A stretch of 64,000 bases of DNA from Syntrophales bacterium (lineage in GTDB: Bacteria > Desulfobacterota > Syntrophia > Syntrophales > UBA2210). Below, piece by piece: positions 3,560 through 45,757 of this stretch (position 1 is its first letter; every line of letters starts with the position of its first letter). The notes below the pieces were generated by a model. That model was not told the origin of the DNA, searched no databases, and saw only the letters and a list, made by a program, of their open reading frames with translations. Both the position numbers and the translations under genes were made by a program. The DNA is taken from the NCBI GenBank assembly GCA_963662405.2, contig CAXXKT010000001.1, positions 2,464,001 through 2,528,000 of the forward strand, in the 5' to 3' direction.

Positions 3560-4623
3560 ATGAAGGACGTGTATGAGCGATTGGCCGAGTTTCTCGATAC
3601 CCTTTCGCATCGGTACCCGGTGCATACCGGATCGGGGATCGAACTGAAGATCCTGAGGCACATCTTCACCCCGGAGGAGGCGGAGTGGCTCATGCAACTC
3701 AAACCGGTACCGGAACCGGCGGAGGAAATCGCCCGTCGGATCGGAAGAGACCCGGAGGAAACCGAAAAGACACTCTACGACATGTCGAGGAAAGGGCTGC
3801 TTTTCCGCACGGGAAAGCCCGGAAACTACCGGTACATGGCAATGGACTTCCTGGTGGGAATCATCGAATTTCAGATGAACCGCATGACCCCGCCCTGGTG
3901 AAGGACATGGAGGAGTTCACTCCTGTCTTGTACGAGGCCACCTGGATGAAGGGGGAAACGCGGGACCTTCGCACCATCCCCGTGAGCGAGAGCGTATCGC
4001 CCGATTCCGAGGTTATGCCCTACGAAAGCGCCGAAGAGGTGATCAAATCGGTCCGGCACATCGCCGTTTCCGATTGCGTCTGCCGGCGGATGACCACTCT
4101 TCTCGACAAGGCCTGCGACCGTCCCGTGGAGACCTGCTTCCATTTCGGGAGCTCAACCCACTATTTTGTTGAAAACGGGCTCGGTCGCTACATCACGCAG
4201 GAAGAAGCCCTTGCGATCCTGAAAAAAGGGGTGGAGGCGGGGCTGGTCTGCCAGCTGGGTTCCTCACAGACCCCCAATGCCCTCTGCATGTGCTGCGGGT
4301 GTTGCTGCGCGGTACTGATGGAGCTGAAAAAACATTACACAAAATCGTCGGACCTGGTCAACAGCAACTTCTTTGCCCGCGTGGACCCAGACGAATGCAC
4401 GGGTTGCGAGATCTGCATCGATCGATGCCAGATGAACGCCATCACCGTCGATGACGTCGCCGAGGTGGACCTGGACCGCTGTATCGGGTGCGGGCTCTGT
4501 GCCGTCGCCTGCCCCACCGAGGCCATCAGGATGTACCGGAAAGACAAAGAGAAGCAATTTATTCCGGAACGCACGGTAATGGAATCCAACATGGCGATCT
4601 ACCGGCAGCGGCGGGAGCAGTAA
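3560..4623 (+). pseudogene. 4Fe-4S dicluster protein with N-terminal HTH-like region, split by a one-base frameshift near 3890
   Basis: Frame 3560-3901 (MKDVYERLAEFLD..) joins frame ending 4623 (..ALVKDMEEF..CxC..CxCCxCCC..CxxCxxCxxxC x2) if one C is added to the C-run in ATGACCCCGCCCTG. Confidence 0.75.
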
Positions 4624-5166: not shown

Positions 5167-5700
5167 ATGGAAAAGATCTGCATTGTGCGAAGGAGAAAAG
5201 ATATTCGAAGTGTCGGAGTCGATATGGATTCCGTGCCGGGGAACCAGCGCCTGGGGGTGGTCCTTCCGCGGGAGGCGCGGGATGATATGGGCACGCGCGA
5301 AGAGAACCCGTTTCCCGTTGAGGCAGTCGTCGGCAGGAAAAAGGATGCAATTTCCTTTCAATTGACGCCCGAACAAAGTGACATGATTCGATCCGGGGAT
5401 TTCGTTCCCTATCTTTCGAACGGGATATCAAAAGGCGCCGCTCTCAGCGTCCGGGAGCAGGCGGACGGTCAGATCAACCTCAGTTTTTACTTTGACCGGG
5501 TGAACACGCTCAGACTGCTCAAAGCGAGCCAGGTATGCGAGATGCTGCAGATCAGCAGAAGTTACCTGGGAAAGCTCATCAGGACAAAGAAGCTGAAGAG
5601 CTACAAGATCGGGGGACTGCGGCGTTTTGCATTGGAAGATATCATCGATTTTCTTGCAGGAACCGATCGCGAATCGAGTCGGCAGGATGATGTCTTGTAA
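5167..5700 (+). CDS. Protein with C-terminal excisionase-like helix-turn-helix (HTH_17) domain
   Basis: LLKASQVCEMLQISRSYLGKLIRTKKLKSYKIGGLRRF pattern. Confidence 0.8.
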   Translation: MEKICIVRRRKDIRSVGVDMDSVPGNQRLGVVLPREARDDMGTREENPFPVEAVVGRKKDAISFQLTPEQSDMIRSGDFVPYLSNGISKGAALSVREQADGQINLSFYFDRVNTLRLLKASQVCEMLQISRSYLGKLIRTKKLKSYKIGGLRRFALEDIIDFLAGTDRESSRQDDVL

Positions 5701-9456: not shown

Positions 9457-9552
9457 AGGCCTTCAGCCTCCGGGGGTTTCTGATATCCGGTTCCGCGGGG
9501 TGGTCAATATATGGGGGAGGGCAGGGGGATGTCATTATCCGATCCGGGCGAA

Positions 9553-9612
9553 AATTAGGGACAGCGCCCATTTTTTCGAGAACTCCGCCGAAAATGGGCG
9601 CTGTCCCTAATT
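9553..9612. repeat. Perfect 22-bp inverted repeat (REP-like element or bidirectional terminator)
   Basis: AATTAGGGACAGCGCCCATTTT (9553-9574) / AAAATGGGCGCTGTCCCTAATT (9591-9612), between convergent genes. Confidence 0.85.
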
Positions 9613-9615
9613 AAA

Positions 9616-11028
9616 TTAGATTTTGTTGGAGCGGCGCCAGATCTTCATCTTCTCCGCCTCTTTGATCAGGTCGTCCCTGAAATCGGGGTGGGCGATACTG
9701 ATGATCTTTTCGGCCCGCATCCAGGTAGGACATGCGGTCAGTTTCACCGCGCCGTATTCCGTGACGATATAATCCACCATCTGACGCGGAATGGTGACCA
9801 CCGTTCCGAGGGGCATCTGCGGCTGTATCCGTGAAGACGTCACACCATTGGCGTCCGTGTGTGTCGACGCGAGGCAGATGAAGCTCTTTCCCTTCTTCGA
9901 CCACTGAGCGCCGAGGACGAAGTCCCACATCCCTCCGTTGCCGGACACCTGTTCCGTTCCACTCGTTTCCGCATTGACCTGCGAGAAGAGGTCGACCTGG
10001 ATGGCGTTGTTGATGCTCACCATGTCGTCGATCTGCCCGATGATCCGGGGATCGTTCGTGTAGTTCACCGGATAAGAAGCGAGGGCCGGGTTGTTGTTCA
10101 TGAAATCGTACATCCGCTTGCTCCCGATGGCGAAGGTGTACGCGCACTTGTGGCGGTCGATGCTCTTCATGGAACTGTTCATTTTCCCCGATTCAATCAT
10201 GTCCACGAAGGCATCGACGAACATCTCCGTGTGCCCCCCGAGGTTTTTCAGGTCCGAATCGGCAATCAGCTTTCCCACCATGTTCGGCATCCCGCCGATA
10301 CCGAGCTGAATGCAGCAGCCGTCATAGATGTATTCCATGACATGCCGGGCGATCTGTGTCTCCACCGCCGAGGGGTCTACCTGCGGCGCGTCATACAGCG
10401 CCTGATCCGCCGGTGCCTCAACGATATAGTCAAGCCGCGAGATGTGAACGGATTCCTCGTTCCCGCCGAGGCAGACAGGGGTATTGGGGTTTACCTCGAT
10501 AATGACGACATCGGCGGCGTCGATCTTGGCCGACGTCTCCGAGTTCTGGGGACCGAGATTGAAATGGCCGGTTTTGTCCATCGGGGCCACCTGGATCATT
10601 GTCACCCATTTTGCCGTCCCCTTCCAGTTCGGATCGTTGTAGTAGAGAGACCGATAGTTCTTGGTGAAGTTCTCATTGGGATCCTGGGTGATAAGCTCCC
10701 GATAGTGTGAAGGACCCCGATGATAGAGGATGGGGCAATAGGATGCCGGCTGCACGAAGGCGTGGAGCATCCGGGTCAGCTTGCTCCACTGCCAGTCGAT
10801 ATAATTGAAGCTTTCAGGGTGATTGATGACCTCCGGAACGGGCGGGACCGTGACGGCCGTATAGATACTGACATCCCGGAGTTCTTCCGCGCGTGCGGCG
10901 AGCGCCGCGTCGAGGACGACTGGTTTCCCGTTAAAAAATCCGTAATCCACGATGTCGCCGGATTCGACGACCTTGACCGCCGTATCGGCGGAGACCAGTT
11001 TTTCTTTATACTGTTGTGCGTAGTTCAT
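9616..11028 (-). CDS. Acetyl-CoA hydrolase/transferase family (butyryl-/4-hydroxybutyrate CoA-transferase-like)
   Basis: QLGIGGMPN, GGHTEM, SINNAIQVDL, SGNGG..DF, IVTEYG, IAHPDFRDDL. Confidence 0.92.
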   Translation of the reverse strand: MNYAQQYKEKLVSADTAVKVVESGDIVDYGFFNGKPVVLDAALAARAEELRDVSIYTAVTVPPVPEVINHPESFNYIDWQWSKLTRMLHAFVQPASYCPILYHRGPSHYRELITQDPNENFTKNYRSLYYNDPNWKGTAKWVTMIQVAPMDKTGHFNLGPQNSETSAKIDAADVVIIEVNPNTPVCLGGNEESVHISRLDYIVEAPADQALYDAPQVDPSAVETQIARHVMEYIYDGCCIQLGIGGMPNMVGKLIADSDLKNLGGHTEMFVDAFVDMIESGKMNSSMKSIDRHKCAYTFAIGSKRMYDFMNNNPALASYPVNYTNDPRIIGQIDDMVSINNAIQVDLFSQVNAETSGTEQVSGNGGMWDFVLGAQWSKKGKSFICLASTHTDANGVTSSRIQPQMPLGTVVTIPRQMVDYIVTEYGAVKLTACPTWMRAEKIISIAHPDFRDDLIKEAEKMKIWRRSNKI

Positions 11029-11315
11029 AGGACCCCCCATGTGAAATTTAGAGATTACTCCGTCCGTTTCCGATCAAGAAGCGATACGCATACGCTCCCT
11101 ACCCGAGCCGTACCCTCCCTGTCAAGCAAAGAGAGACCTCCGGCGCCGCGAAAAGGTACAGATTGTGTCGTAACAATCCAATTTGTTTTGGCATAAACTT
11201 TTTTCTCTCCCCTGCCTTTCAGGTTTGTTGCGTCCGCTAAAAATCAGCTAGTAGAGTAGGGGGGAATACGGTATCATCACCGGTATCTGAAATGATCAAT
11301 GGAGGTGACCATTGC

Positions 11316-11477
11316 ATGAGAGGAACCATAATCCTGATCTCGATCATCGTCATCTGGTATGTACTCCAGCGATTCATCCTGCCCCGGATGGGCGTATCTA
11401 CGTGACTCAAGCCATCCTGCCGGGCGGCGGACAAAAAGAGTCAAGATGACAACCCGGACGACAAAGACGCGGGATAA
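11316..11477 (+). CDS. Candidate small membrane-anchored selenoprotein (53 aa; in-frame UGA at codon 30, UxxxxC)
   Basis: GGAGGTGA RBS; MRGTIILISIIVIWYVLQRFILPRMGVST-UGA-LKPSCRAADKKSQDDNPDDKDAG*; SECIS-like hairpin directly after the UGA. Confidence 0.6.
11403..11443 (+). promoter_or_regulatory. Putative bacterial SECIS element
   Basis: Lower stem TGACTC/GAGTCA; upper stem TCC(T bulge)GCC/GGCGGA; G-rich loop GGGC after a 16-nt spacer from the UGA. Confidence 0.55.
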
Positions 11478-11563
11478 GACGTGAAACCTAAGCCGTCGGT
11501 TCTCACCCCGATTCATCGGGCTGAGGACTTTGCCTCTAAACAAGGATTGCAAAGGAGGTCATC

Positions 11564-11875
11564 ATGCCCGACCACCACACACCCTTGGAGACCGAACGCC
11601 GGACCGTCGAGGCGATGATCGGGATCTTCTGCCGCGGCCACCACGGCACGAAGGAGGAACTCTGCCCGGAGTGTCGGGAACTCCTTGACTACGCCGCCGG
11701 GCGTCTGGAGAAGTGTCCCCTCAAGGACGACAAGCCGACGTGCTCGAAGTGCCCCGTGCACTGCTACAAACCGGCCATGCGGGAGAAGATCAGGGCCGTC
11801 ATGCGCTATGCCGGCCCCCGGATGGTATACCGTCACCCCGTCCTTGCGGGGCGGCACTACTTATCTGGAAAATGA
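11564..11875 (+). CDS. ygbA: YgbA-like (nitrous oxide-stimulated promoter family) Cys-rich protein
   Basis: E..TV..MI.I.C..HH, LC.EC..L..YA..RL.KCP, KPTC..C.VHCY.P.MR..I..VMRYAGPRM...HP. Confidence 0.88.
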   Translation: MPDHHTPLETERRTVEAMIGIFCRGHHGTKEELCPECRELLDYAAGRLEKCPLKDDKPTCSKCPVHCYKPAMREKIRAVMRYAGPRMVYRHPVLAGRHYLSGK

Positions 11876-11886
11876 GAAGGAAAGAA

Positions 11887-12183
11887 CTACAAAACAGGTT
11901 TATCGATCCGCAGGAGCATGTGTCCTTCAAAGACGGTCAGTATCTCAACAAACTCTCCCTTAACACGGTACACAATGCGATACTTTTTGAAAACCAACTC
12001 CCGGATATCCGGATGAGAGATTTCGGGAACGATTCTCCCCGCCCGTGGTGTATCAGCCAGTAACTCCACATGTTGGATAAGCTGATCGACGAACCCCACC
12101 GCTCGTTCGGGACTGTCTTTCGAGATATAATCCCCGATCCCGGTCAGACGCTCAAGGGCTTCCTGGGTCCATATGATCTTCAT
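11887..12183 (-). CDS. RelE/ParE family type II toxin
   Basis: MKIIWT..A..L..I.DYI..DSP..A, GRIVPE, IREL...YRIVYR. Confidence 0.9.
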   Translation of the reverse strand: MKIIWTQEALERLTGIGDYISKDSPERAVGFVDQLIQHVELLADTPRAGRIVPEISHPDIRELVFKKYRIVYRVKGEFVEILTVFEGHMLLRIDKPVL

Positions 12184-12189
12184 CCGGAA

Positions 12190-12474
12190 CTATCTCTTGC
12201 TTCTGTTCGCTGTTAATGCCGCCCTGACTTCCTCGGTAGAGTAAGTTCGCCCGCTTTCAGCATCCGATATGCCTCTTGTGACGGAATCGAGAAAGGCCTT
12301 GCTGTAAACCAATTCATCGTAATCCTTCGGAGACAGCAGCACTCCGGCGGGTTTTCCGTTCTGTGTAATAACCAGGGGATGTTCCGTATCCTGGAGGCTT
12401 TTAAACCACTTGGAGATACCTTTCTTGAATTCAGCAATCGGAACGATACCGGTGGTGACCGAAATAGGCTTCAT
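12190..12474 (-). CDS. Phd/YefM family antitoxin
   Basis: PIAEFK, PLVITQNGKPAGVLLS..DYDEL; directly upstream of the toxin; AAGGAG RBS. Confidence 0.9.
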   Translation of the reverse strand: MKPISVTTGIVPIAEFKKGISKWFKSLQDTEHPLVITQNGKPAGVLLSPKDYDELVYSKAFLDSVTRGISDAESGRTYSTEEVRAALTANRSKR

Positions 12475-12491
12475 GAAATGGCTCCTTATTG

Positions 12492-12539
12492 TGACTCTTT
12501 TAATGGTCAAAATATAGATCAATAAATGCCGTAAATCAA
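12492..12539 (-). promoter_or_regulatory. Sigma70-type promoter and palindromic operator of the TA operon
   Basis: Minus strand TTGATT-17nt-TATATT, followed by a TGAC-N10-GTCA palindrome. Confidence 0.5.
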
Positions 12540-12555
12540 GTGTTAATAGCTTCCC

Positions 12556-12643
12556 GATCAGGCAGGTCATGCGCTACGCCGGCCCCCGCATGCTCTACCG
12601 TCACCCCGTCCTTGCGGGGCGGTACTACCTGACGGGCCGGTAA
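12556..12643 (+). repeat. Orphan copy 2 of the ygbA 3' end
   Basis: Reads IRQVMRYAGPRMLYRHPVLAGRYYLTGR*; colinear with 11788-11875. Confidence 0.92.
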
Positions 12644-12917
12644 TCACGAGAATCAAACAGCCACCGTGCGTTTTGGGCCCGGCCCCGCGTACCGTCCGTA
12701 CGAACATGGGTCGATCCCATTGGAATAATCATCTCCGTTTCACAAGATAATTGTGCGCATTTGCGGAAACACCTTGATCTCTATACGATCTGTTGCTAAG
12801 CATACCCCTTCATGTAAACTACGTGAAAATGAATGGTCGGCGTGTTTGGATGGAAGACATAGTAACCCCTCAGGGTGAAACTGCGGGTGGATACGAACTC
12901 AGATATAGGAGAAGAAC

Positions 12918-13106
12918 ATGGTAGAAGGAATGGGTTCCATAGATGGAAGCGAAATTTCATTTGAAGAATTTCTGCTGATGACGGCAATACAGATCGACAC
13001 CCTCTCCCAGATCCTTATAGAAAAAGGCATCATTACAGAAGAGGAATTTCACGCCAAGTTTCAGGAAGTGCAAACGAGATATATAGGAGAGGGGAATAAC
13101 TCCTAG
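12918..13106 (+). CDS. Small hypothetical protein (62 aa)
   Basis: AGGAG RBS; helical acidic protein with LIEKGIITEEEF motif. Confidence 0.65.
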   Translation: MVEGMGSIDGSEISFEEFLLMTAIQIDTLSQILIEKGIITEEEFHAKFQEVQTRYIGEGNNS

Positions 13107-13376
13107 AAGCCCCGGCAGGAGGGACTCTGAGACGCAGGGATTCTGTGAATTGATATCGAGCGGAGACGAGCTATAACCCCTGTCAGGGTGGAATCTTTGT
13201 CTGACGGATCGCCATGATATTCGACCGATCGGAGCAGTCGTGCGCTCCGTCGGTCCTCGGATGCTCTTCCGTCACTCCCTCCTAGCACCCAGCCCCTTGC
13301 CCCTAGCCCATCCTTCCTTGACCTCAACGGACGATTTCGCTATAGAACGTACACTACTCATCAGGGGGGGGTACTC

Positions 13377-14123
13377 ATGATCACGGTGGATACCGAAAAA
13401 TGTATCGGATGCGGGCACTGCACCGCGGTGTGCGAGCAGCAGGCGGTCACCCTCCTCGGCGACTACGACCCTGCCGAGATCATGGCATACGACGACCCCC
13501 GGAAGTTTCAGATTGAACCGGATAAACTCCTCAACCTGGTCAAATTCAGGAGGAGCATCCGTCAATTCACGGACGAACCGGTCAGCGACAGCGATATCCG
13601 GAAGATCCTGGAGATGGGCAGATACACGCAGACCGGCGCGAACATGCAGCTCCTCCGGTATATCGTCCTCACCAGGGATACCCTCCGTGAAATCGCGCCC
13701 ATCGCTCTGAAGGCCCTGTCCGAACTCGACATCGCGACAGTCGACAAGAAGGCCATGCGCGTTCCCTATCAGTTCCTGGATTTTCAACAGATCTGGCAGC
13801 ACTGGTACCGGGTGTATCAGAAAACAGGGCGGGATCTCCTGTTCCACGACGCCCCCAACGCCCTTATGGTCGTCAGCCGCAAGTGCAACGAACTGGACGG
13901 CGTCTTCAATATCGGCCACATGGAGCTGATGGTCAACGCCCTGGGCCTCGGCGCTTGCATGATGGGTTTCGGAACCTTTGCCTTCGATATATCCCAGGAA
14001 CTGAGAGAAAGAGTCGGCATTCGAGATGACGAAGCCGTCATCATCATGATGGTCTTCGGGCACCCCAAGGTGAAATACCTCAGGACCGTTAACAGGAAGA
14101 AACCCAGATATCAGATAATTTGA
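13377..14123 (+). CDS. Nitroreductase with N-terminal 4Fe-4S ferredoxin segment
   Basis: CIGCGHCTAVC, RRSIRQF, LGLGAC, FGHP. Confidence 0.88.
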   Translation: MITVDTEKCIGCGHCTAVCEQQAVTLLGDYDPAEIMAYDDPRKFQIEPDKLLNLVKFRRSIRQFTDEPVSDSDIRKILEMGRYTQTGANMQLLRYIVLTRDTLREIAPIALKALSELDIATVDKKAMRVPYQFLDFQQIWQHWYRVYQKTGRDLLFHDAPNALMVVSRKCNELDGVFNIGHMELMVNALGLGACMMGFGTFAFDISQELRERVGIRDDEAVIIMMVFGHPKVKYLRTVNRKKPRYQII

Positions 14124-14448
14124 TCGTATACTCATTATGCCCAATTGTGAGAATATCTTTCCCGGCAGTCATGCTGTATCAGAGAAGTATGCACTGATTA
14201 CCTAAATATCAGTGCATATTAAAAAATCGTGCACTGATTTAGTGCATTGAATGTTTGTACAATTCCCAGAAAAATTCCATATCGCAATAAATGCTATATA
14301 TCGACACGAAATACATATATATCGATGACATAGCCATGAGAAAGGTACGTGTCCATAAAATGGTATTTAGGGGACACGTTATGTGAACATGTCCACGCCA
14401 TGGACACGTTCTTTATCGTTCTCGATGATATTTGGCGATGAGCATCCA

Positions 14449-14528
14449 ATCAGGTGCGCTACACCGGTCCCCGCATGCTCTATCGCCACCCCGTCCTCGC
14501 GGGAAGACACAACCTGAAGGGGAAGTAA
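14449..14528 (+). repeat. Orphan copy 3 of the ygbA 3' end (degenerate)
   Basis: ATCAGG, then a 7-nt deletion, then RYTGPRMLYRHPVLAGRHNLKGK*. Confidence 0.88.
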
Positions 14529-14635
14529 CCCTGCCAACGTGAAACGTCATTTTACTTCCTTGACTTTCTTTTGAAATCTGCTATTTATTCTGGTGCTTGC
14601 CAAGGGGGACGAAAAAATGAAAAGAGACACAACAC

Positions 14636-14669
14636 AACCCTGCTTCTCACCATGGAGGCGGGGTTTTTT
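14636..14669 (+). terminator. Intrinsic terminator-like hairpin upstream of the HNH gene
   Basis: AACCCTGCTTC/GAGGCGGGGTT stem followed by a T-run. Confidence 0.5.
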
Positions 14670-14707
14670 GTTAGGTGAAACCTAAAAACAAGGAGGGTGG
14701 TCCAGCC

Positions 14708-16162
14708 ATGGCTGAAACGAGACAAATTTCAGAAAGTGAAAAGCAAGAAGTTCTGGAAAAACATGGGCGCAGATGCTTTGTTGATGCGGAGCCTATCCCG
14801 GAAGAAGATACTGTTGAATTCCACCATATCAAACCTTTTTCAGAGGGAGGCCCTACCAATATTGATAACATTGCACCAGTTTGTAGGCGGCATCATCAAT
14901 CAATAGGAACGATGAGTCTTCAAGAATACCGAGATAAACTTGAACTTGGGCGTTTTTTTGAGGGCGAACCCAAATATCTTGATGACGTGATTAAACATAA
15001 AGAAGGGATTTTGGGGGAAAAATTTCAATACGAGACAGATGATAAAAAAATTACATTCTACTTTGATGTGAAGCAAGAGTATCCGATACATAAATGTCCT
15101 ACAACTAACTGGGATTATCTTTATGCCACCCTGCCGATAAAATATCTGAAAAATGACAAAGAATTACAGCCACGAGCAATACGAGAAGTTTCAATGTGGA
15201 ACCTCTATCGCCACTTTCAACGAAACACTCAAATATCTCCCTCAATTTGTCGGATTGATTCTGATGGTGACATTCTTCTTTTTGATGGGCAGCACAAGGC
15301 AGCCGCACAGATCTGGGCAGGGCGAAAAACTATAGAATGCAAGGTTTACTTGTGTCCCGATGAAAAAATATTAAAAGAAACCAACCTTGAAGCACACGGG
15401 CAGTTTCGTCAAATGTCGTTCTATTCACATGAATTGATGAAGAAATATGCTGATATATTTGGGGAAGACTGGTCAGAATACATGCAAACCAAAGGTCCAA
15501 AATCTGAGAAGGAATTCTTGAATTTCTTAATGAATGCAAAAGGGAAAACAAAAGCACAAGCAAAAAACGAAATCTCAATGGCTATGTATAATGAAATAGT
15601 TGATGAACCCAGTAACAAATTATCAGGTTTTCTCTCAGAAAAAAGCAGGGGACGCAAGCAGCCTTTATCTTTCGCGCGTCTCAAAAAGACTTTTTTCCAG
15701 AGCATGTTAATCCCGCCCCCTGTTGAGGCCGAGTTTGAATCTGATGAAGATTTTAGAAAAGAAGAAAAAACTAATTTAATAAAACTAATGAACATTATTG
15801 CTGAAGAAGGCCTTCAAAATAAATGGGCACCCGAGCGAAACGATGCCACGCATAAAAAAACAGAAAAAATCTTTAGTGCAGGTGCAATAAGAGCTTGGAC
15901 AATTCTTTTAAGAGATGCCATTAATCAACATCTAAGACATTATTCAGATGATCAAAGGAGTACCTTTTTCTATCGTAATATTGCTGATGATGAATTTGAA
16001 TATTTCAAACAATTTGTTAAAAAAATCTTTTCTCATAAAATATGGGACGATCCTGATCCATCTGGTGAAATTGCAGCCCGACTTTCAAAAGATGATGCAA
16101 CAACGGCCAAGAGCCTTTTTGAAGAGCACAATCTCACCGCACAGTGGGTGTTAGGTTCGTAA
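14708..16162 (+). CDS. N-terminal HNH endonuclease fused to a ParB/DndB-like DGQH(K) domain; probable defence protein
   Basis: CFV..EFHHIKPFSEGGPTNIDNIAPVC..HH; LLFDGQHKAAA; GGAGG RBS; AT-rich. Confidence 0.78.
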   Translation: MAETRQISESEKQEVLEKHGRRCFVDAEPIPEEDTVEFHHIKPFSEGGPTNIDNIAPVCRRHHQSIGTMSLQEYRDKLELGRFFEGEPKYLDDVIKHKEGILGEKFQYETDDKKITFYFDVKQEYPIHKCPTTNWDYLYATLPIKYLKNDKELQPRAIREVSMWNLYRHFQRNTQISPSICRIDSDGDILLFDGQHKAAAQIWAGRKTIECKVYLCPDEKILKETNLEAHGQFRQMSFYSHELMKKYADIFGEDWSEYMQTKGPKSEKEFLNFLMNAKGKTKAQAKNEISMAMYNEIVDEPSNKLSGFLSEKSRGRKQPLSFARLKKTFFQSMLIPPPVEAEFESDEDFRKEEKTNLIKLMNIIAEEGLQNKWAPERNDATHKKTEKIFSAGAIRAWTILLRDAINQHLRHYSDDQRSTFFYRNIADDEFEYFKQFVKKIFSHKIWDDPDPSGEIAARLSKDDATTAKSLFEEHNLTAQWVLGS

Positions 16163-16290
16163 AGCAACAAAATGCAGTTCATCGGTGGGACGGAGAAAGC
16201 TTGCTGCATCAGCGCTCGATTCACAAATTGATTTGAACCCGCTTCGCATTTCTGTAGTGGTTTCTATCAGATGAGAGGCTTGAAATAGCG

Positions 16291-18042
16291 ATGGCCAAGA
16301 ATCAAAAACTGGAACTCACCTGGATCGGGAAGGAAAACCGGCCGAAGCTGGAACCGAGGATACTGATCGAAGACTCGGAAAAATCCTACGGCGATAAGAA
16401 CAGCGAAAACATGCTCATATACGGAGACAATCTTCTCGCCCTGAAGGCGCTAGAACAGGATTTTGCCGGGAAGATCAAGTGCATTTATATTGATCCCCCT
16501 TTTAATACGCAACAAGCTTTTGAACATTATGATGATGGTCTTGAACACTCAATCTGGCTAAATTTGATGCGTGATCGTTTAGTAATTCTACAAAAACTTT
16601 TAGCAACAGAGGGAACCTTATTCGTTCACATTGATGATAACGAGCTTGGGTATCTAATTGTTCTGCTTGATGAAATTTTTGGAAGATCCAACCGAATATC
16701 TATAATAACATTTAAGCAAGGGGCTGCAACAGGCCACAAAGCTATTAATCCTGGTTTAGTCACAACTTCCAACTTTGTGTTAATTTATGCAAAGAATCGA
16801 GCCTCATGGGCACCCAAACGTGTTTTTACAGAGAAGACTGGAAGAGACAAGAGATACTCACAATATATTGAAAATTATAATGAGGAATATCGTAAATGGA
16901 AATTCATAACTTTAACAACTGCTTTCGCAGATAGCCTTGGTTTGCCAACAAGCAGCTTAAAGAAAGCTTTAGGTGACCAATTCGAAGAAAAGTTGTTCCA
17001 ATTTGTATTAGAAAATGCGCATAGAGTGATTCGTTTTGCAAGACCCAATTATAAGGCAGTAGGTGCTGTAGCTCGATCATTAATTGATGAGTCGCTACAG
17101 CATAAAGAACAAGTAATGCTTTTGAAAAGAAAGAAGTTTTCTGACATGTATTTTATTAAAGGAGAACGGATTTTATTTTATGCAGATAAGCTGAGGTTAA
17201 TTGATGGAAAGCATATTGCTGGTGAACCTCTTACAAGCATATGGGATGATGTGCTCTCAAACAATCTTCATAATGAGGGTGGCGTAGATTTTCCTAAAGG
17301 TAAGAAGCCCGAAGCATTAATTAAGCGTTGTTTTGATCTTGCTTCTTCGCCGGGAGATATAGTTCTTGATTCGTTTGCGGGTTCTGGCACGACAGGTGCT
17401 GTTGCCCATAAAATGGGTCAGCGTTGGATTATGGTAGAGTTAGGTGACCAATGCCATACGCACATAATTCCACGTATGAAAAAAGTTATTAACGGCGAAG
17501 ACTCAAGCGGCATATCCAAGACATTGCAATGGAAGGGGGGAGGGGGATTCAAGTATTACTATCTTGCCCCCAGCCTGCTCAAGGAAGACAAGCACGGGCA
17601 CTGGGTGATCGATGAACGGTATAATGCAGACATGCTGGCTGCCGCCATGGCCAAACATGAAGGATTCAGGTACCATCCCGATGAGCAGGTCTACTGGAAA
17701 CAGGGCCGATCCACGGAAAAGGATTTCATTTACACCACTACCCAGCTCATTACCGTCGAAACGCTGGACCGAATCCGCGAAGAGATGCAACAGGGGGAGA
17801 GCCTTTTGATCTGCTGCAGATCCTTTCAAAAAGTCTGCGAAGATCGTTATCCGGAGATCACCGTCCGGAAGATACCCGGCATGCTGCTCGGCCGGTGCGA
17901 ATTCGGCAGAGACGATTACAGCTTCAATATCGTCTCTATGCCCGTCGATCCCGACGCGCCTGATTTCGTTCCCTCCGGTCCCCCGAAGGAGATTTCAAGA
18001 AAAAAGAAGAAAAACACGATGGAGCAGAAAGAACTTTTTTAG
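16291..18042 (+). CDS. mod: Type III restriction-modification methyltransferase (Mod)
   Basis: KLELTWIGK, GDNLLALKAL, IYIDPPFN (motif IV), GKKPEALI, DSFAGSGTTG (motif I), WKGGGGF. Confidence 0.92.
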   Translation: MAKNQKLELTWIGKENRPKLEPRILIEDSEKSYGDKNSENMLIYGDNLLALKALEQDFAGKIKCIYIDPPFNTQQAFEHYDDGLEHSIWLNLMRDRLVILQKLLATEGTLFVHIDDNELGYLIVLLDEIFGRSNRISIITFKQGAATGHKAINPGLVTTSNFVLIYAKNRASWAPKRVFTEKTGRDKRYSQYIENYNEEYRKWKFITLTTAFADSLGLPTSSLKKALGDQFEEKLFQFVLENAHRVIRFARPNYKAVGAVARSLIDESLQHKEQVMLLKRKKFSDMYFIKGERILFYADKLRLIDGKHIAGEPLTSIWDDVLSNNLHNEGGVDFPKGKKPEALIKRCFDLASSPGDIVLDSFAGSGTTGAVAHKMGQRWIMVELGDQCHTHIIPRMKKVINGEDSSGISKTLQWKGGGGFKYYYLAPSLLKEDKHGHWVIDERYNADMLAAAMAKHEGFRYHPDEQVYWKQGRSTEKDFIYTTTQLITVETLDRIREEMQQGESLLICCRSFQKVCEDRYPEITVRKIPGMLLGRCEFGRDDYSFNIVSMPVDPDAPDFVPSGPPKEISRKKKKNTMEQKELF

Positions 18043-18073
18043 ATACACAGATGTCATCACCTGACAGGAGCTC

Positions 18074-20758
18074 ATGACAATGGATCGTATCGCAACTTCC
18101 ATCAGGAACCGCCTGAGCCTGCGGGCACCCCAGGCGGAAAGCCTCGAAATACTCGCCGAACTTGTTGATAAACTGACACTGCAGAAGGATGCCGATCTGA
18201 AGACGGAATTGAGCAAGGTTCAGGAGAACTATCCGACATGCACCGATTTTGAGAGAAGTTTTCCCTCTCTCTGTTTCGCTCTCGCAACCGGCGTTGGGAA
18301 GACGCGCCTCATGGGCGCTTTTATCACCTATCTCTATCTGGAAAAGGGAATGAAGGATTTCTTTGTCCTGGCGCCCAATCTCACCATATACAACAAGCTC
18401 ATTGAAGACTTTTCACTTCCTACCAGCCCCAAATACGTATTCCAGGGGATCGGCGAATTTGCTACCAAAAGACCGCACATCATCACAGGCGACAATTACC
18501 TGTACGCCTCTCAAACGACCCTGTACGATTCCGAAGTACACATCAACATCTTCAATATCTCAAAGATAAACGTCGAGACACGGTCAGGGAATATGCCTCG
18601 GATCAAACGGCTTTCGGAATATCTGGGCGAATCCTATTTCAACTATCTTTCCGGTCTCGACGATCTTGTTTTGCTGATGGACGAATCACATCACTATCGG
18701 GCCGACAGGGGCATGGAGGTCATTAACGAATTAAACCCCATTCTCGGATTGGAACTGACGGCGACTCCGCAAGTGGAGCGTGGGCAAAAGACGATAAAAT
18801 TCAAGAATGTCGTCTATGAATATTCACTGGCAATGGCAATCCGAGACGGGTTTGTCAAAGAACCGGCAGTGGCGACGCGAAAGAACTTTGATCCCGCGCA
18901 GTACACCGCTCAGGAACTTGACAGAATCAAGCTTGAGGACGGGATGCGTATTCATGAAGATACCAAGGTGGCGCTCGACATATATGCAAAGGACAACGGA
19001 GCTGAAAAGGTAAAACCCTTTGTCCTTGTCGTTGCCAAGGATACGGAACATGCAAGTGCCCTGAAGATCTTGATCGGGTCTCCGGGATTTTTTGAAGGCC
19101 ATTATGCCGACAAAGTCATGGAGATCCATTCCGCCCAGAAAGGATCTGAGAAGGATGAAAACATCGCCCGGCTCGTTTCTCTGGAAAATCCCGACAACAC
19201 GGTGGAGATCGTGATCCATGTGAATATGCTGAAGGAGGGGTGGGATGTAACAAATTTCTACACCATCATTCCCCTTCGAACCGCCGCCTCAACTACTCTC
19301 CGAGAGCAGACCATCGGGAGGGGGTTGCGTCTCCCTTACGGCAAGAGAACCGGAAACGATAAGGCCGATAAATTAACAATTGTAGCGCACGATAAATTTC
19401 AGGAAATCGTCGATGAGGCGAACAAGCCCGGATCGATCATAAAGAAAGAACATATCATTGAGATAGATCCTGAGGATTTTTCACAGCAGAAGGAAGTAAT
19501 TACATCGGTCTCAAGCATTGAAGAAAGATTGAAAGAGGCCCGAGCGATCATTGATAACATCGCAGAGCCTGAGGAAAAGAGGAAGGCGTGGGTAAGTCTT
19601 GAACTGAAAAAGACGATTCTCGATGTCCTCCCCGAACTCAACAGAGCAGCCAAGAGCGTAAATGAACTTTCGAGATCGGATATCAAGGAAATCGCCATCG
19701 AAAAAATAAAGCACAGGATATACGGCGATCCTCAGCAATCCCTGTTTGCCGAAGAAGCGATAACAGGGGTAATGGAATTATATCAGTCTGTCGTCGATGA
19801 TTTTTCGGACAATATTATCGAGATTCCACGAATCACAATTCAGCAGAGTGGTGATGTCCTGTCGGGATTCAAGGATTTTGACCTTGACACCGGCAATCTC
19901 AATTACCAGCCTGTGTCCGAAGAGATACTGGTAAAAAAACTTCGTGAGCAAGAAAACAGCACGGATATTGTTATAGGGAAAGGCCGAATTATTGCCGACA
20001 GTCTTGATAATATAATAGTAACCGAACTCAAATCTTTCCCGGAAATAGACTACGATCGTCAGTCGGATCTTCTCTTCAAGCTTGCAGGTCAGGCTGTTGA
20101 AAAATTCAGGTCATATCTTGATGGTGATGCCGTTACCAATGTAGTGCAATACAACAAGAGGGAGATCGCAAACAGGATCTATGCTCAGATGATGGATCAT
20201 TTCTATTATGAAACACCGGGATTTATGAAAACGACCGTTCGCCCTTTCACAAAGATCGAAGAACATCACTTTTCAAAATTGTCTAAAGACAGCATCTTCC
20301 ATTACGCAGAGACAATTACGCCAGCCAGTGCCATACCGTCAAAGGTCTTCAGCGGATTCAAAAAGGCCTGGCATACCCTGTATAAGTTTGATTCAAAAAC
20401 GGAAAAAGATTTCGCCACGTTGCTTGAAAATGACTCAGCGGTGCTGAAATGGCTTCGGCCTGCGGATAGGCAATTCCATATTTATTGGAATCATAATTCG
20501 CAGAGATATCACCCCGACTTTGTGGTTGAGGCGGACGATACAATTTATATGGTCGAGACAAAAAAGGAAAGCGATATCGATTCGTCGGATGTACAGGAAA
20601 AAGCACGGGCCGCGCTTCAGTATTGTAGCTACGCAACAGAATTCACGACAAGTAATGGCGGTAAATCGTGGAAGTATATTCTAATTTCCCACAATGCCGT
20701 CATGAGAAACATGAGTGTCGAATATCTCATGAAAAATTATGAATATAAAGATAGCTAG
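18074..20758 (+). CDS. res: Type III restriction enzyme Res subunit (SF2 helicase + PD-(D/E)XK nuclease)
   Basis: LATGVGKT, DESHH, LTATP, LKEGWDV, QTIGRGLRL, PDFVVE..VETK. Confidence 0.92.
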   Translation: MTMDRIATSIRNRLSLRAPQAESLEILAELVDKLTLQKDADLKTELSKVQENYPTCTDFERSFPSLCFALATGVGKTRLMGAFITYLYLEKGMKDFFVLAPNLTIYNKLIEDFSLPTSPKYVFQGIGEFATKRPHIITGDNYLYASQTTLYDSEVHINIFNISKINVETRSGNMPRIKRLSEYLGESYFNYLSGLDDLVLLMDESHHYRADRGMEVINELNPILGLELTATPQVERGQKTIKFKNVVYEYSLAMAIRDGFVKEPAVATRKNFDPAQYTAQELDRIKLEDGMRIHEDTKVALDIYAKDNGAEKVKPFVLVVAKDTEHASALKILIGSPGFFEGHYADKVMEIHSAQKGSEKDENIARLVSLENPDNTVEIVIHVNMLKEGWDVTNFYTIIPLRTAASTTLREQTIGRGLRLPYGKRTGNDKADKLTIVAHDKFQEIVDEANKPGSIIKKEHIIEIDPEDFSQQKEVITSVSSIEERLKEARAIIDNIAEPEEKRKAWVSLELKKTILDVLPELNRAAKSVNELSRSDIKEIAIEKIKHRIYGDPQQSLFAEEAITGVMELYQSVVDDFSDNIIEIPRITIQQSGDVLSGFKDFDLDTGNLNYQPVSEEILVKKLREQENSTDIVIGKGRIIADSLDNIIVTELKSFPEIDYDRQSDLLFKLAGQAVEKFRSYLDGDAVTNVVQYNKREIANRIYAQMMDHFYYETPGFMKTTVRPFTKIEEHHFSKLSKDSIFHYAETITPASAIPSKVFSGFKKAWHTLYKFDSKTEKDFATLLENDSAVLKWLRPADRQFHIYWNHNSQRYHPDFVVEADDTIYMVETKKESDIDSSDVQEKARAALQYCSYATEFTTSNGGKSWKYILISHNAVMRNMSVEYLMKNYEYKDS

Positions 20759-20857
20759 AGCGTTTAGGTTTATTATGGGCATGTGATCATTAGGAAACAT
20801 AATGTAAAATTGTCAGCAGGAAGGGTTTTGCTAGTACATGAAAGGACATGTAGCCGG

Positions 20858-21122
20858 ATGAACAAGCAATTGAACACAGGAGAAATACTCATATACCAGA
20901 CGGAAGATGGGCAGGCCTTTAGAGGTTAACCTGACGGAGGATACGGTTTGGCTGAACCTGAACCAGATGGCGGTGCTTTTCGACAGGGATAAGTCAGTGA
21001 TATCAAGGCACATACACAGTATTTTTAAAGAAGGTGAACTCGAAAAAAAGGCAGTTGTTGCAAATTTTGCAACAACTGCTTCGGATGGAAAAACCTATCA
21101 AGTTGGATACTTTAATCGATTG
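20858..21122 (+). pseudogene. RhuM-family remnant, frameshifted and 3'-truncated
   Basis: MNKQLNTGEILIYQTEDG, frameshift, then EDTVWLNLNQMAVLFDRDKSVISRHI..IFKEGEL..VVANFATTASDGKTYQV.YFN; similarity ends near 21120. Confidence 0.8.
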
Positions 21123-21170
21123 ATGATGTGGTCGGATTGTGCTAGCGTGCACCCGCACACAACGTGAAGG

Positions 21171-22085
21171 ATGCGCGATCACATGCCCCTGCCATGGCCT
21201 CTCGATCTCGCGGGTTTTTATCTGCGGCGAAAACTGGGACGACTTACTCTTCCCCTGCTGGCAAGTTTCAAGGTAACGCACCGCTGCAATCTGGCGTGCC
21301 GGGCCTGTCCCTTTCACCGGCAGGACCAGCCGGGACAGATGACGTGGGGGACTGCCCTTGAGGCGATGGATGATCTCAAGAGTCTGGGAACCCGCATCGT
21401 GGTTTTTGAAGGCGGGGAACCGCTCCTCTGGCGCGACGGTTCTTACCGTATTCATGACCTGGTCCGCGAGGCCCGGAGGCGGTTTCTCCGCGTGGCGGTG
21501 ACAACCAACGGGACCTTGCCGCTAGATGTTCCCGCCCACATCCTCTGGGTCAGCGTCGACGGTCTCAAGGAAAGCCACGATGATCTGCGGAGTGGTTCCT
21601 TCGACCGGATCAGGGAGAACCTGGAACGGGCGGACCACGAACGGATATTCGTCCACTGCACGGTGAACCGGAGGAATCTGGAAGACATCGAGGGACTGGC
21701 ACGGTGGGCCCGCGGGGTCTCCGTGGTGAAGGGGATGACCTTTCAGTTTTTCTACCCCTACAACCAGGGAGAAGAGGATCTTTCCCTCTCACCCGGTCAG
21801 CGGCGGCGGGCGGTGGAGACCCTGCTCGATCTCAAGAAACGGGGGTTCCCCGTCCTGAATTCGGCCGGGAGACTGGCGGCAATGGTAAACGGCGGGTGGA
21901 CCTGTCATGACGATATCCTGGTCAATGTCGATCCCGACGGGTCCGTCACCCGAGGTTGCTACGTGAAAAGCCGCGGCGAGATCAACTGCGCCGCCTGCGG
22001 CTTTACGCCCGTCGCCGAGGCATCCGGCGCGCTCGATCTCGTTCCGGGGTCGATCTACGCGGGGTGGCGGCTGTTCCTGCGGTAG
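21171..22085 (+). CDS. Radical SAM protein with Cys-rich C-terminal extension
   Basis: CNLACRAC, GGEPLL, TTNG, SVDG, C-terminal C..GCY..C..CG. Confidence 0.9.
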   Translation: MRDHMPLPWPLDLAGFYLRRKLGRLTLPLLASFKVTHRCNLACRACPFHRQDQPGQMTWGTALEAMDDLKSLGTRIVVFEGGEPLLWRDGSYRIHDLVREARRRFLRVAVTTNGTLPLDVPAHILWVSVDGLKESHDDLRSGSFDRIRENLERADHERIFVHCTVNRRNLEDIEGLARWARGVSVVKGMTFQFFYPYNQGEEDLSLSPGQRRRAVETLLDLKKRGFPVLNSAGRLAAMVNGGWTCHDDILVNVDPDGSVTRGCYVKSRGEINCAACGFTPVAEASGALDLVPGSIYAGWRLFLR

Positions 22086-22218
22086 GCGTTTTCATTCGGT
22101 GGGCGATGCGTGGGAGTTTTTTCTTCCTTTCTTTTTCAAATGAGGATACTCACGATATCATGATTGGTGTGATTATTGATAATCGGGCGGTATCGACAGC
22201 ACTGATCGAGGGGATGGT

Positions 22219-23142
22219 ATGGACGTTATCCCGACCCTGGCAGGCTATGTCCTGTTCGGCCTGGCCGTGGCGCACGCGGTGGTGGACGGGCGCGATAATC
22301 GGGCGCAGCGGCTGTGCATGATCGTGACGCTACTGGTGTTCGGCACCCTCCTGGAATATATGGGGGTATCCAGCGGCAGTTATCAGTATCCCAGAGAAAA
22401 ACTGGTCAATCTGGGCCCGGTGCCGCTGTCGGTCAGTCTCGCCTGGGTGGGCCTTATCTACAGCCTGATGATTATCGGGGAACGACTGCGGTTGCCGTGG
22501 TGGTCCCGGATTCTCGCGACGACGCTGATCGCGCTGAGTCTGGACTGGGGGATGGACCCGGTCGCCGTTCATATCGGCGCGTGGACCTGGTCGCGGCCCG
22601 GCGCGTACTTCGGCGTGCCCCTGTTCAACTTTGTGGGGTGGTTTTTTATCCCCATCGCGTATCTCCTGGCCTATGGTTTGAGCTGGGATCGAGAGCGGCG
22701 GCGCCCGACGTTACTGACCATCGCGGAAATTGACCATGACCCGGGATTCGGCAAATGGGGACGACTGGTCTATACCATCCTGCTGGTCGTGCCCGTCAGC
22801 CTGATCCTGCTGACACTGACCGCCGGTAAAATCGGGGGATTGGGGGTTATGACCGACACACCCTTTGCCGTCTTTGTGATCTGCGCGGTATGCACCGTTC
22901 TGGCTGCCGCGGGGGTGGTGATCCGGAGGCGGGAAACCCTCGGCCATGCGCGGAAGATCGACCTTGTCCCCCCGGTCATTCTGTTGGTTATCAGCATCAA
23001 CTACACCGTTTTCGGCCTCATCACCGGCCGCCCGTCGCTGGGTCTTCTCATGTTATTCTCGGCCATCCCGCTGTGGCTGGTCTTTTTTTTCAGCGTGAGG
23101 AGAAGGAAACGGGCAACTGATTCAAGAATGATCCGTGGGTGA
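22219..23142 (+). CDS. DUF422/CruF-like (carotenoid biosynthesis family) membrane protein
   Basis: E.MGV..G.Y.Y, GPVPL...AW, D..MDPVAV..G.W.W, YFGVPL.NF.GWF. Confidence 0.75.
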   Translation: MDVIPTLAGYVLFGLAVAHAVVDGRDNRAQRLCMIVTLLVFGTLLEYMGVSSGSYQYPREKLVNLGPVPLSVSLAWVGLIYSLMIIGERLRLPWWSRILATTLIALSLDWGMDPVAVHIGAWTWSRPGAYFGVPLFNFVGWFFIPIAYLLAYGLSWDRERRRPTLLTIAEIDHDPGFGKWGRLVYTILLVVPVSLILLTLTAGKIGGLGVMTDTPFAVFVICAVCTVLAAAGVVIRRRETLGHARKIDLVPPVILLVISINYTVFGLITGRPSLGLLMLFSAIPLWLVFFFSVRRRKRATDSRMIRG

Positions 23143-42810: not shown

Positions 42811-43986
42811 CTAGTTGAGGAGGTGTTCTTCGAAGACCTTGACTTGGTTGCGATCGTCCTTTGCTTTATAAAGGGCGATATCGGCTTCCTTTGCTAACTG
42901 ATCGAAAGACTTCTCGCCGTGGAAGGTGCTCGAGACCCCGAGACTGATCGTGATATAAATCGGTTTTTCTTCGAAGAGTACCGCCGAACGTTCGATCTCC
43001 AGGCGGAGCCGTTCTGCGATCTCGAGGGCATAGGCCCTCTCCGTCTCCGGGAGCAAGACCATAAATTCTTCGCCCCCTGTTCGTCCCAGGATATCCCCGG
43101 ATCTCAGGCTGCGTGTGATGACGGATGAAAAATGCTGAAGGGCCCTGTCTCCGGCCGCGTGTCCGTAGGTGTCATTGACGTCTTTAAAGTGATCGAGGTC
43201 TATGGCGATCAGGGACAGCTCCGAACCGTTCCGATTCGCGGCGGCCCGGGCCTTTTCGATAAGCTTGATGAATGAACGCCGGTTGAAGGCATCCGTCAGG
43301 GAATCGACCTCCGCCTGTTGCTTGACTTGAAACATGAGATGATCCAGAATCAAAAGGACATAGGCTAGGGTAAAGGCGAAAACGGCGATGAACGATTCGC
43401 AGAATGTCGCCTTTGCCATCATGCCCCCCTCCACGAACGCTCGCATGTCGGGGATGGTCAGTACCACGGTCGAGCGAATGAGATTAAAGATGCCGTGCAG
43501 GGTCATCAGGATGGCGAACCCGGACGTCAGTATGCGATTGGACCGGGTAATGCCGGCAATCTCGAAGGCGATGAAAAAGCACAGGCATGCGATGAACGCA
43601 GTGACGAGGGAAGAACGCAACGCCTCGTTTTTCTCAAAGTATGTCAGATAGATCATGATCCCCGTAACGAGGATGACAAAGGCGGGAAAGAGGGCACATG
43701 CCTGATGTGCCTCCGCTTTTCCCCTGTGTGCCCGAAATCCGATGTACAGGGAGTAGAACCCCGCCGTGATGGAGATATTAAAGGCAACGGTGAGGAGGGG
43801 GTGGGGGGTCGTCGTCTCTCCGGCGAGGAAGAGAAAGCTCATGATAAACAGCAGATTACCCAGAGCCCAATAGTGAACCCCCGGGACACCGGGGTTCCAC
43901 CTGAGGATTACAAGAGATATGACCAGAACCGCGACCAGCAGAATGAAATTGGCCGCTATCAGTGTTGGGACGTACAGTATCTCCAC
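42811..43986 (-). CDS. Membrane-bound diguanylate cyclase
   Basis: About 7 TM segments, D.LT..FNRR, DLDHFK.VND.YGH, RxxD, GGEEF. Confidence 0.92.
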   Translation of the reverse strand: MEILYVPTLIAANFILLVAVLVISLVILRWNPGVPGVHYWALGNLLFIMSFLFLAGETTTPHPLLTVAFNISITAGFYSLYIGFRAHRGKAEAHQACALFPAFVILVTGIMIYLTYFEKNEALRSSLVTAFIACLCFFIAFEIAGITRSNRILTSGFAILMTLHGIFNLIRSTVVLTIPDMRAFVEGGMMAKATFCESFIAVFAFTLAYVLLILDHLMFQVKQQAEVDSLTDAFNRRSFIKLIEKARAAANRNGSELSLIAIDLDHFKDVNDTYGHAAGDRALQHFSSVITRSLRSGDILGRTGGEEFMVLLPETERAYALEIAERLRLEIERSAVLFEEKPIYITISLGVSSTFHGEKSFDQLAKEADIALYKAKDDRNQVKVFEEHLLN

Positions 43987-44251
43987 AACAAAAGATCTTC
44001 CTTTCTATCCGTGTGTCTCGTTCGATCAGGAAAAGCGAAGGCTCGAGGGGTACAAAACAGCCCACTCATACACCATATCGGCATCAATTGCCATTCTCAT
44101 CTTACCGCCTGAATGGTACAATTCTCCCCAGGGGAAGGGCGATCAAGGGGGACCCTCGGTCTGTTGGCGGGATGCCGTTGCCGTGGATGACGCGAACCAA
44201 AGGACTACTTTTCCGATTCCCCCTGGGGCTTTCAGTGATGGAGAGATTCTT

Positions 44252-45469: not shown

Positions 45470-45757
45470 CTTCACGGCCCTCACTTGCCGGACGGTGTTA
45501 CCGCCCCACATGAGTGGAAGCAGATGCGCTCCTGAAAAGCAATGCACGCATCGAAACGGTGTGACAAATCTATTTCCCCTTACTATACCATATCTTGGCA
45601 TCAATCTCCATTCCCATCCTCATGCCGGCAACAGAACGCCGTGAAGAAGGGATCAATAAGGAGTGAAAGCTGGAAAGGGAGCTGAAATCAGCGACGAAGG
45701 AGGCGAAATCCACGGCGGGGATATGTTATGGATGTCCCGCGGTTGTTCGTGAGGGCG

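Follow-up and report, generated by a model that had tools for sequence, protein, structure and literature searches.

Serial copies of the ygbA gene end separate small cassettes and precede a swappable restriction-modification block in a Syntrophales bacterium

A stretch of 64,000 nucleotides from the genome of a Syntrophales bacterium (assembly GCA_963662405.2, contig CAXXKT010000001.1, positions 2,464,001 to 2,528,000 of the forward strand; hereafter the window) was analysed with respect to the gene ygbA and the copies of its 3' end that lie behind it. The source genome is referred to as G000 (contigs C1 to C3, the window being C1:2464001-2528000), other genomes carry the letter G, loci and contigs the letter L and metagenome runs the letter X. 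Intact ygbA (11564..11875, + strand), the target gene, encodes a protein of 103 amino acids of the nitrous oxide-stimulated promoter family (PF11756, E-value 3.9e-42; NF007714 over cut-off). Its last 88 bases, from the codon of Ile76 on, occur four times in series (starting at 11788, 12556, 13227 and 14449), with tail copy 1 (11788..11875, +) being the end of the gene itself and the shared start lying at G|AT of the Ile76 codon. An initial annotation of this DNA had recognized the copies at the gene, at 12556 and at 14449 and had overlooked the fourth, decayed one at 13227. No further tail copies were found in the rest of the 3.8-Mb genome, in which other matches were of 30 nt or less with E-values of 0.006 or worse.

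Tail copy 2 (12556..12643, +) is an orphan with a frame open to the stop, and is 89% identical to the gene over 73 nt (E-value 7.6e-21 against the whole 3.8-Mb genome). Tail copy 3 (13227..13290, +) starts at the same G|ATC as copy 2 and is 75% identical over 60 nt; it is decayed, ending after about 60 nt and having the invariant residues M80 and P92 altered. Tail copy 4 (14449..14528, +), again an orphan, is 82% identical to ygbA over 49 nt and 84% identical to copy 2 over 67 nt. Both orphans had been described as starting at the same ATCAGG; copy 2 has a clean start, whereas copy 4 has lost 7 nt directly after these first 6 bases. The stops of ygbA and of copies 2 and 4 lie at the equivalent codon, as previously described.

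Differences between the tails were found to be mostly synonymous, in agreement with the initial annotation. Relative to ygbA, copy 2 has 9 synonymous and 7 non-synonymous differences (ratio of non-synonymous to synonymous change, pN/pS, 0.28) and copy 4 has 14.5 and 5.5 (pN/pS 0.13). Protein-preserving change was seen among the orphans as a whole (copies 2 and 4 and those of L203 and G233, described below; pN/pS 0.13-0.34), with values of 0.34-0.61 for decayed copy 3, and the tail copies of the window diverge from each other by 11-25%. This divergence is allele-like: copy 4 is nearer to the intact gene of metagenome contig L203 (64/69 nt) than to its own ygbA (49/69 nt), and copy 4 with its downstream 47 nt matches the intact L203 gene end at 91% over 122 nt. 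The idea that the tails derive from different functional alleles is thereby upheld for copy 4, but the synonymous divergence that had been offered in its favour is no proof of tails borne by elements, because recombination with intact alleles yields the same pattern.

Upstream of copies 2 and 3, identity to four intact alleles is at chance level from position -2, and the 40 nt before each orphan showed no resemblance to the 5' part of ygbA (p 0.06-0.94). A likeness reported between the sequences preceding copies 2 and 4 amounts to 6/17 anchored bases, which is the chance level; copies 2 and 3 agree at 8/17 (p 0.04), copies 3 and 4 have one 8-mer in common (p 0.006), and copies 2, 3 and 4 share a weak upstream motif, which counts in favour of a site-specific reaction. 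A stub in front of tail 4 (14433..14447, 15 nt, no strand assigned) is an inverted copy of an intra-tail stretch, a fold-back signature (p about 5e-4 against genomic 20-mers; fold z-score -2.4) that reached significance at this junction alone out of 12 tested. That the tail might be a conserved hairpin of the attC type was rejected, with folds varying among the copies (z-scores -0.5 to -2.8), and no Rfam RNA was found in 11000-21500.

Three cassettes lie between the tails, of 681 bp, 584 bp and 1149 bp. Cassette 1 (11876..12555, - strand) holds a toxin-antitoxin (TA) pair, identified with Pfam as a ParE toxin (11887-12183) and a Phd antitoxin (12190-12474), with the promoter of the pair ending about 16 nt before tail 2. 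Cassette 2 (12644..13226, +) holds an open reading frame (ORF) of 62 amino acids (12918-13106) that is without a Pfam or NCBIfam family and has a paralogue at C1:299951-300099 of G000. Cassette 3 (13291..14448, +) is composed of a ferredoxin-nitroreductase gene (13377-14123; Pfam) and a palindrome-rich remnant (about 14130-14440). With the copy at 13227, what had been taken for one cassette of 1.8 kb is two, and of the earlier assignment of cargo to each copy it is the TA pair that is bounded by tails as described. Behind the last tail is a defence block (14529..21114, +) consisting of a leader, genes for an HNH protein (14675-16162) and for the Mod (16291-18042) and Res (18074-20758) subunits of a type III restriction-modification (R-M) system, and a fragment of a PDC-S05-like gene (20907-21167). 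This block, with no closing tail on its right side, is not a cassette bounded by tails but a neighbour that can be swapped. The right flank (21115..21304, +) covers the upstream part and the start of a radical SAM gene, and is where relatives G007 (at 21115) and L203 (at 21116) rejoin the window (88% and 86% identity). The R-M block has a GC content of 43%, compared with 48-51% for the cassettes and 58-59% for the flanks. Genes for integration or transfer were not found between the tail repeats.

Two non-coding features of this region recur elsewhere. The leader of the HNH gene (14543-14673), with a promoter and a terminator-like hairpin, has counterparts in G005, G036 and G011 (L232, L233, L237), which precede unrelated defence genes and are conserved at 80-83%; the window leader resembles, by eye, that of the G000 intI gene and gave no Rfam match. 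The stretch before tail 4 (14130-14440) is a run of short perfect palindromes, akin to runs located after a Fic-like gene fragment (named by eye) in L203 (2000-2260) and before a type I R-M locus in G036 (L233 7039-7113). In appearance, these runs suggest operator arrays or the remnant of a gene.

Relatives of the same lineage were found to vary cassette by cassette, with joints within the tails. G007 has the same TA pair behind its ygbA, next to it a short, decayed tail that begins at that base too (L031:7797), and further on a helicase and a type III system unlike that of the window. The metagenome contigs L203 and L205 possess ygbA, the antitoxin with a toxin remnant and an intact orphan tail starting at the same base, behind which lie two different type I R-M blocks. 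Cassette 1 is common to all three, the junction of TA pair and tail being the same and the R-M systems differing. G005 represents an empty site, with ygbA directly followed by the ATPase gene that comes after the island in G007; its nitroreductase gene is situated upstream of trpB, 2.3 kb upstream of ygbA. No ygbA match was obtained in the congeneric genomes G001, G002, G004 and G006. In G007, the start of the radical SAM gene was additionally observed twice (L031 17934-18123, L238 357-1334), around an AAA_14/DUF4143 gene, a further case of partial-gene duplication, here at the right-hand end of this variable region.

Four of the nine listed metagenome runs were compared with the window. In X4, a sediment metagenome from another study, two records from relatives at about 89-93% identity are known from the coordinates and lengths of their joints. 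Record 18 has the gene (11750-11856) joined to 12680 through 55 letters (19 + 36), exact for the loss of cassette 1, which places cassette 2 directly behind an intact ygbA. In record 19 the TA promoter (12517) is joined to the nitroreductase leader (13313) through 81 letters, cassette 2 being absent and the joint being 43 letters shorter than a clean loss of cassette 2 would leave. Joints from 11772 in X4 and X2 were set aside as cross-matches to ygbA of other organisms. The variable cargo that the initial annotation had expected of relatives is present in G007, L203, L205 and the X4 alleles, and orphan tails are present in G007, L203 and L205, along with the empty site of G005.

A second instance was identified in G233, a member of another family. 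Here ygbA is followed by a bile-acid-symporter-family gene and a thioesterase gene (2.0 kb together), an orphan tail starting from the same codon and a PDC-S06-like ATPase gene. G230 is the empty site for this layout, and the orphan end of G233 corresponds to the native gene end of G228, G229 and G230, i.e. it is a displaced native 3' end. The transporter and thioesterase genes are found elsewhere in G230, G042 and G235. They and the nitroreductase gene are ordinary genes located elsewhere in relatives, which contradicts the earlier view of stress or defence cargo throughout. Within the genus of G233, a non-coding, promoter-like element of 70 nt was observed at unrelated loci at 83-90% identity (L051 12250-12380; L271, L277, L279, L281), and a perfect 19-bp palindrome often lies upstream of it; one of the copies stops directly before the orphan tail of G233.

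Two further loci duplicate ygbA sequence in other ways. Contig L223, by eye of a Bacteroidales-like lineage, contains the ygbA 3' part as a perfect direct repeat of 109 bp (4122-4230 and 10005-10113) enclosing 5.8 kb of hypothetical genes, with the break 22 nt before codon 76 and no integrase by Pfam; this is probably an independent insertion system at ygbA. Contig C23 of G258 (L056) has ygbA twice at full length within a tandem duplication of 4.25 kb, the final 100 nt of the two copies being 95% identical.

The common breakpoint that had been claimed was observed in copies 2 and 3, in L203/G007 and in G233, with the untidy copy 4 and L223 (22 nt earlier) departing from it. Its start base, the G or A before the AT of Ile76, is common to three different upstream sequences in the G000 lineage and to G233 of another family. 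Assuming independence, the chance of one, two or three further breaks falling within 1 nt of the first is 0.013, 1.7e-4 and 2e-6. Deletion remnants of ygbA within the order break at about -70, -30, -17, +10 and -6 to 0 relative to this position. A break at codon 76 was seen in 4/4 insertion-type cases and in at most 1/5 deletion remnants (Fisher p 0.048, a small and post hoc comparison); inclusion of the Bacteroidales case gives 4/5 against 1/5 (p 0.21).

Other explanations of the position, and other candidate orphans, were tried and rejected. Ligation of GATC restriction ends was discarded, with copy 4 and G233 lacking GATC and the site not being depleted (observed/expected ratio 0.97); a short upstream motif combined with GATC matched in 34/38 genomes of the family and is too common to discriminate. 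G192 has no intact gene within 20 kb or by genome search and is deletion-like, ending 0-6 nt before codon 76. Candidates in G303, G248, G309, G102 and G304 were contig ends, that in G280 a scaffold gap, that in G307 a frameshift, and those in G139 and G255 were spurious.

These observations support ygbA as a recurrent insertion point, and to that extent the earlier description of the gene as an attachment site or recombination anchor stands; an integrative element, or a recombinase making the joints, was not borne out. Regarding the manner in which the joints formed, we infer as the best reading, with a probability of about 0.5, a site-specific insertion at codon 76 by a recombinase that was lost or acts in trans, followed by homologous shuffling through the tails. 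Accordingly, ygbA would have at codon 76 a likely attachment site for a site-specific recombinase. A site-specific reaction is favoured because the same base was used in two families with differing surrounding DNA and is mostly absent as a break in deletion remnants. An incoming block would have carried the 88-bp gene end of another allele, so that ygbA was restored and the old end pushed downstream, with the recombinase now being lost or acting in trans and the blocks having kept, or ever had, no mobility genes, in the manner of a cis-mobilizable element (CIME). The tails, 75-93% identical, could then serve as homology for RecA-type recombination: tail-tail recombination would pop cassettes out and stack cassettes from different strains, recombination with intact alleles would refresh orphan tails, and the tails together with the right flank would allow the R-M block to be swapped. 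Tails acting as homology, which would apply equally to the allele exchange considered below, would account for copy 4 looking fresh and for copy 3, although nearer the gene, being the most decayed, and the order of the tails is hence not an age series. As an integrase of its own and a complete element were not found, the locus is not filed as an integrative element. A broader version, in which a host or trans-acting recombinase uses the short stub and ygbA tail as a reusable unit for sub-kilobase cassettes and the R-M block in at least two families of one order, as a cassette platform distinct from integrons, is considered doubtful.

A number of results weigh against site-specific insertion. 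The three G000 junctions may, judging from their sequences, share ancestry, and if they do only G233 is independent (chance 0.013). The junction of copy 4 is untidy, with its inverted copy and 7-nt loss. The G233 junction displays short microhomology, its upstream sequence has no motif in common with the other junctions (3-5/17), and its nearest integrase sits at tRNA-Val. G043, tried as a supporting orphan, proved to be a plain internal deletion relative to intact G266 with a break about 17 nt before codon 76, its upstream motif likeness being merely the Met72 codon. The cassettes are too small for a recombinase gene, and two of the cargos are housekeeping genes present elsewhere in relatives.

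The rarity of the layout belongs with these results. Matches to ygbA were found in 200/339 genomes of the order (with 70 weaker matches outside those listed, and 34 genomes re-queried). A tail pattern excluding intact genes matched 4/339 order genomes (G000, G233, G043 and G192); this pattern misses the short tail of G007 and copy 4. True orphan sites by pattern number 2/339, to which G007 adds its short decayed tail, and a stricter tail pattern matched G000 only among 401 genomes of the phylum. As a control only, 80 flanked loci of other lineages were taken from a scan with at least 120 matches, intact genes included; no tail copy was found behind the 68 intact ygbA genes among them with at least 3 kb downstream, the sole exception being one 20-nt match (E-value 0.001). 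Likewise, no tail copy was found at 5,419 chromosomal ygbA places in 5,419 E. coli genomes. The 33 metagenome matches comprised two of the genus type (L203, L205), two of the G233 type (L201, L210, too short for the gene), the Bacteroidales repeat (L223), one of the G043 type, three of the G192 type, 14 frameshifted or variant intact genes and 10 tail-only remnants without a nearby gene. Given this rarity across order, phylum, other lineages and E. coli, the ygbA tail is not a universal site, being used in two genera of one order among the genomes searched.

The search for a recombinase adds to the same side. None is encoded in the 64-kb window, as had been noted initially; the G000 genome has 24 PF00589 and 3 PF00239 matches, all outside the window, and no PF07508 match. 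This last family, of large serine recombinases, was found in 0/8 genomes of the genus and 2/38 of the family, none at ygbA. Home-made recombinase profiles were applied to all fetched loci (227 ygbA loci, overlapping loci counted apart), of which three had a tyrosine-recombinase match, and none was found adjoining an orphan-bearing ygbA. Nor was a tail-only copy found in 50,697 phage records, the best 40 of 46 plasmid matches or viral contigs, these collections giving only whole ygbA matches or matches at the ends of records. None of the sets searched (genomes of the order, loci, phages, plasmids and viral sequences) yielded a complete element with the same target specificity, with few orphan-bearing loci being available.

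Recombinases were observed in two other settings. In an Ellagibacter contig (L132 9442-9900), an intact ygbA ends no more than about 60 bp from a tyrosine recombinase gene on the opposite strand, with no orphan tail within the 10-kb flank. In G000, a small resolvase is followed by a resolvase-domain protein of more than 550 amino acids missed by PF07508 (C2:288597-291194, L326); this pair resembles DsiA/DsiB, is separated by about 9 kb from a tRNA-Met that has a 48-bp repeat, and is unlinked to ygbA.

Exchange of alleles without a dedicated enzyme is a possible alternative, at distinctly less than even odds. The incoming DNA would be a relative's ygbA allele together with the sequence behind it. 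Homology would act on the left and end-joining to the resident gene on the right, near a break-prone or microhomology-rich codon 76, with unequal recombination between tails building the array as at rhs; homology on one side with end-joining on the other is the process known as homology-facilitated illegitimate recombination. Such exchange is in keeping with each cassette left end occurring behind an intact ygbA in some relative (the TA pair in G007, cassette 2 in X4, the leader of tail 4 in L203 and the transporter in G237), with the scars at tail 4 (inverted copy and 7-nt loss) and the microhomology in G233, with an 8-of-9 dyad, by itself not significant, at the junction of L203/G007, and with housekeeping cargo and no integrase found beside an orphan-bearing ygbA. 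The orphan of one strain being the main gene end in another is likewise described for rhs in the available text of PMC3967940. Taken alone, however, allele exchange leaves the same base in two families with different surrounding DNA unexplained, and deletion remnants, which are also end-joined, break at the scattered positions given above. A different origin, in which the orphans are remnants of whole-gene or segment duplications with the 5' parts later deleted, is unlikely. Deletion remnants of ygbA are indeed common (G043, G192, G093, G315/G079, G245), a two-copy tandem duplication exists in G258 and the G005 nitroreductase gene lies 2.3 kb upstream of ygbA; yet the 40 nt before each orphan are unlike the ygbA 5' part, the tails are nearer to the alleles of other strains than to the resident gene, as detailed for copy 4, and three deletions would need one end point. 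A strain chimera created in assembly is more improbable still. The assembly comprises three contigs, but a contig of the separately assembled run X6, possibly from the same sample or DNA source, spans 9500-22500 without a difference, the same junction is found on independent contigs of G007, L203 and L205, and the tail copies differ from each other by the margin stated above.

The integron of G000 was examined because homologues of the TA pair are attC-linked elsewhere and G000 possesses an IntI, the proposal being that a G|AT in ygbA serves this integrase, acting in trans, as a secondary site of the attG type and that the junctions were created in this way; this is improbable. An intact IntI (TIGR02249 over cut-off) is encoded at C1:2211990, 263 kb away, attC arrays are present in G000, and other genomes of the order hold TA-pair homologues as integron cassettes. 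The G at -1 in copies 2 and 3 and the L203 orphan fits the GWT consensus given in the available part of bioRxiv 2022.09.11.507474, a consensus for IntI1 that ygbA and copies 2 and 3 match at -1 to +2. Against this, the sequence at +6 to +9 does not fit CRGM, again an IntI1 consensus, the G233 orphan and copy 4 are without the G, and cassette insertion would split the gene and not duplicate its end. No attC was found at any junction by motif scan or covariance model (whole window filtered, about 10.1-14.1 kb unfiltered), the model being moderately sensitive, with 4/5 control attC loci found at E-values up to 1 and one of these in the training set. Further, IntI over cut-off is absent from G007 and G233 (drafts) and present in orphan-free G003 and G005, so that its presence does not track orphans across the five genomes checked. 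The stubs were also compared by eye with attI sites, and the G000 attI sites do not match. In some genomes of the order (among L289, L290, L292 and L293) the ParE/Phd pair was observed as an integron cassette in reverse orientation that has an attC, and in G033, G032, G149 and the window it was observed without attC.

The structure is of a known kind, at a new target gene. The comparisons that follow draw on the available portions of the papers cited. Site-specific insertion at codon 76 would resemble e14 and phage 21 at icd of E. coli (icd and icdC; PMC13626634, PMC3530522), where cargo likewise lies between an intact gene and a C-terminal fragment of it, the differences are mostly synonymous and loss of the cargo leaves a chimeric working gene; e14 is an excisable prophage of 15 kb that brings a site-specific system of its own, whereas the ygbA blocks are of 0.6-2 kb, recombinase-free and three deep. 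CIME accretion (PMC5704250) and the Dehalococcoides ssrA islands (PMC3146451) share with ygbA tandem islands bounded only by repeats of the target 3' end, some of them without integration genes, and a conserved short motif upstream of the repeat. Their repeats, however, are of 8-60 bp and integrase-bearing relatives are known, in contrast to an 88-bp coding repeat of different alleles at ygbA, for which no such relative was found. At rhs (PMC3967940), displaced ends lie downstream of the full gene, the orphan is the main end of another strain, and homologous recombination takes place between main gene and orphan; the unit repeated in rhs systems and in those for contact-dependent growth inhibition (CDI) is a variable toxin C-terminus with an immunity gene, whereas the ygbA tail is conserved and the variable part is the unrelated DNA behind it. 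Insertion at attG (bioRxiv 10.1101/2022.09.11.507474; PMC10127599) is alike in crossover at G|AT, an integrase in trans and a TA pair that is a cassette elsewhere, but it disrupts genes, and the ygbA locus duplicates a gene end without attC and without a fit to CRGM. The enterobacterial fhlA-ygbA-mutS island hotspot (PMC7232297) also has ygbA bordering a variable region; repeats or attachment sites are not reported in the portion available, and each E. coli genome gave a single chromosomal match to ygbA. A full-text search, with subscription papers outside its coverage, found no literature on ygbA as an attachment site.

Two repeat features unrelated to ygbA were also observed in G000. Three paralogous genes at about 1.5-kb spacing (window 43163-46222) yield the repeat families D2, D7, D17 and D20, and C3:119855-154130 carries at least six copies of an 85-95-nt element resembling a MITE (miniature inverted-repeat transposable element), with long terminal inverted repeats and a variable core.

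With this locus, ygbA is one more protein gene having a 3' end that acts as an insertion point. In compact and natural form, the locus documents the stacking of integrase-less islets and the swapping of an R-M block between strains. With cassettes this small and a junction located to the single base, the mover of such islets can be tested for directly here. A trans-acting recombinase, if that is the explanation, would make this a cassette system parallel to integrons; otherwise, the locus would be a well-resolved recombination scar.

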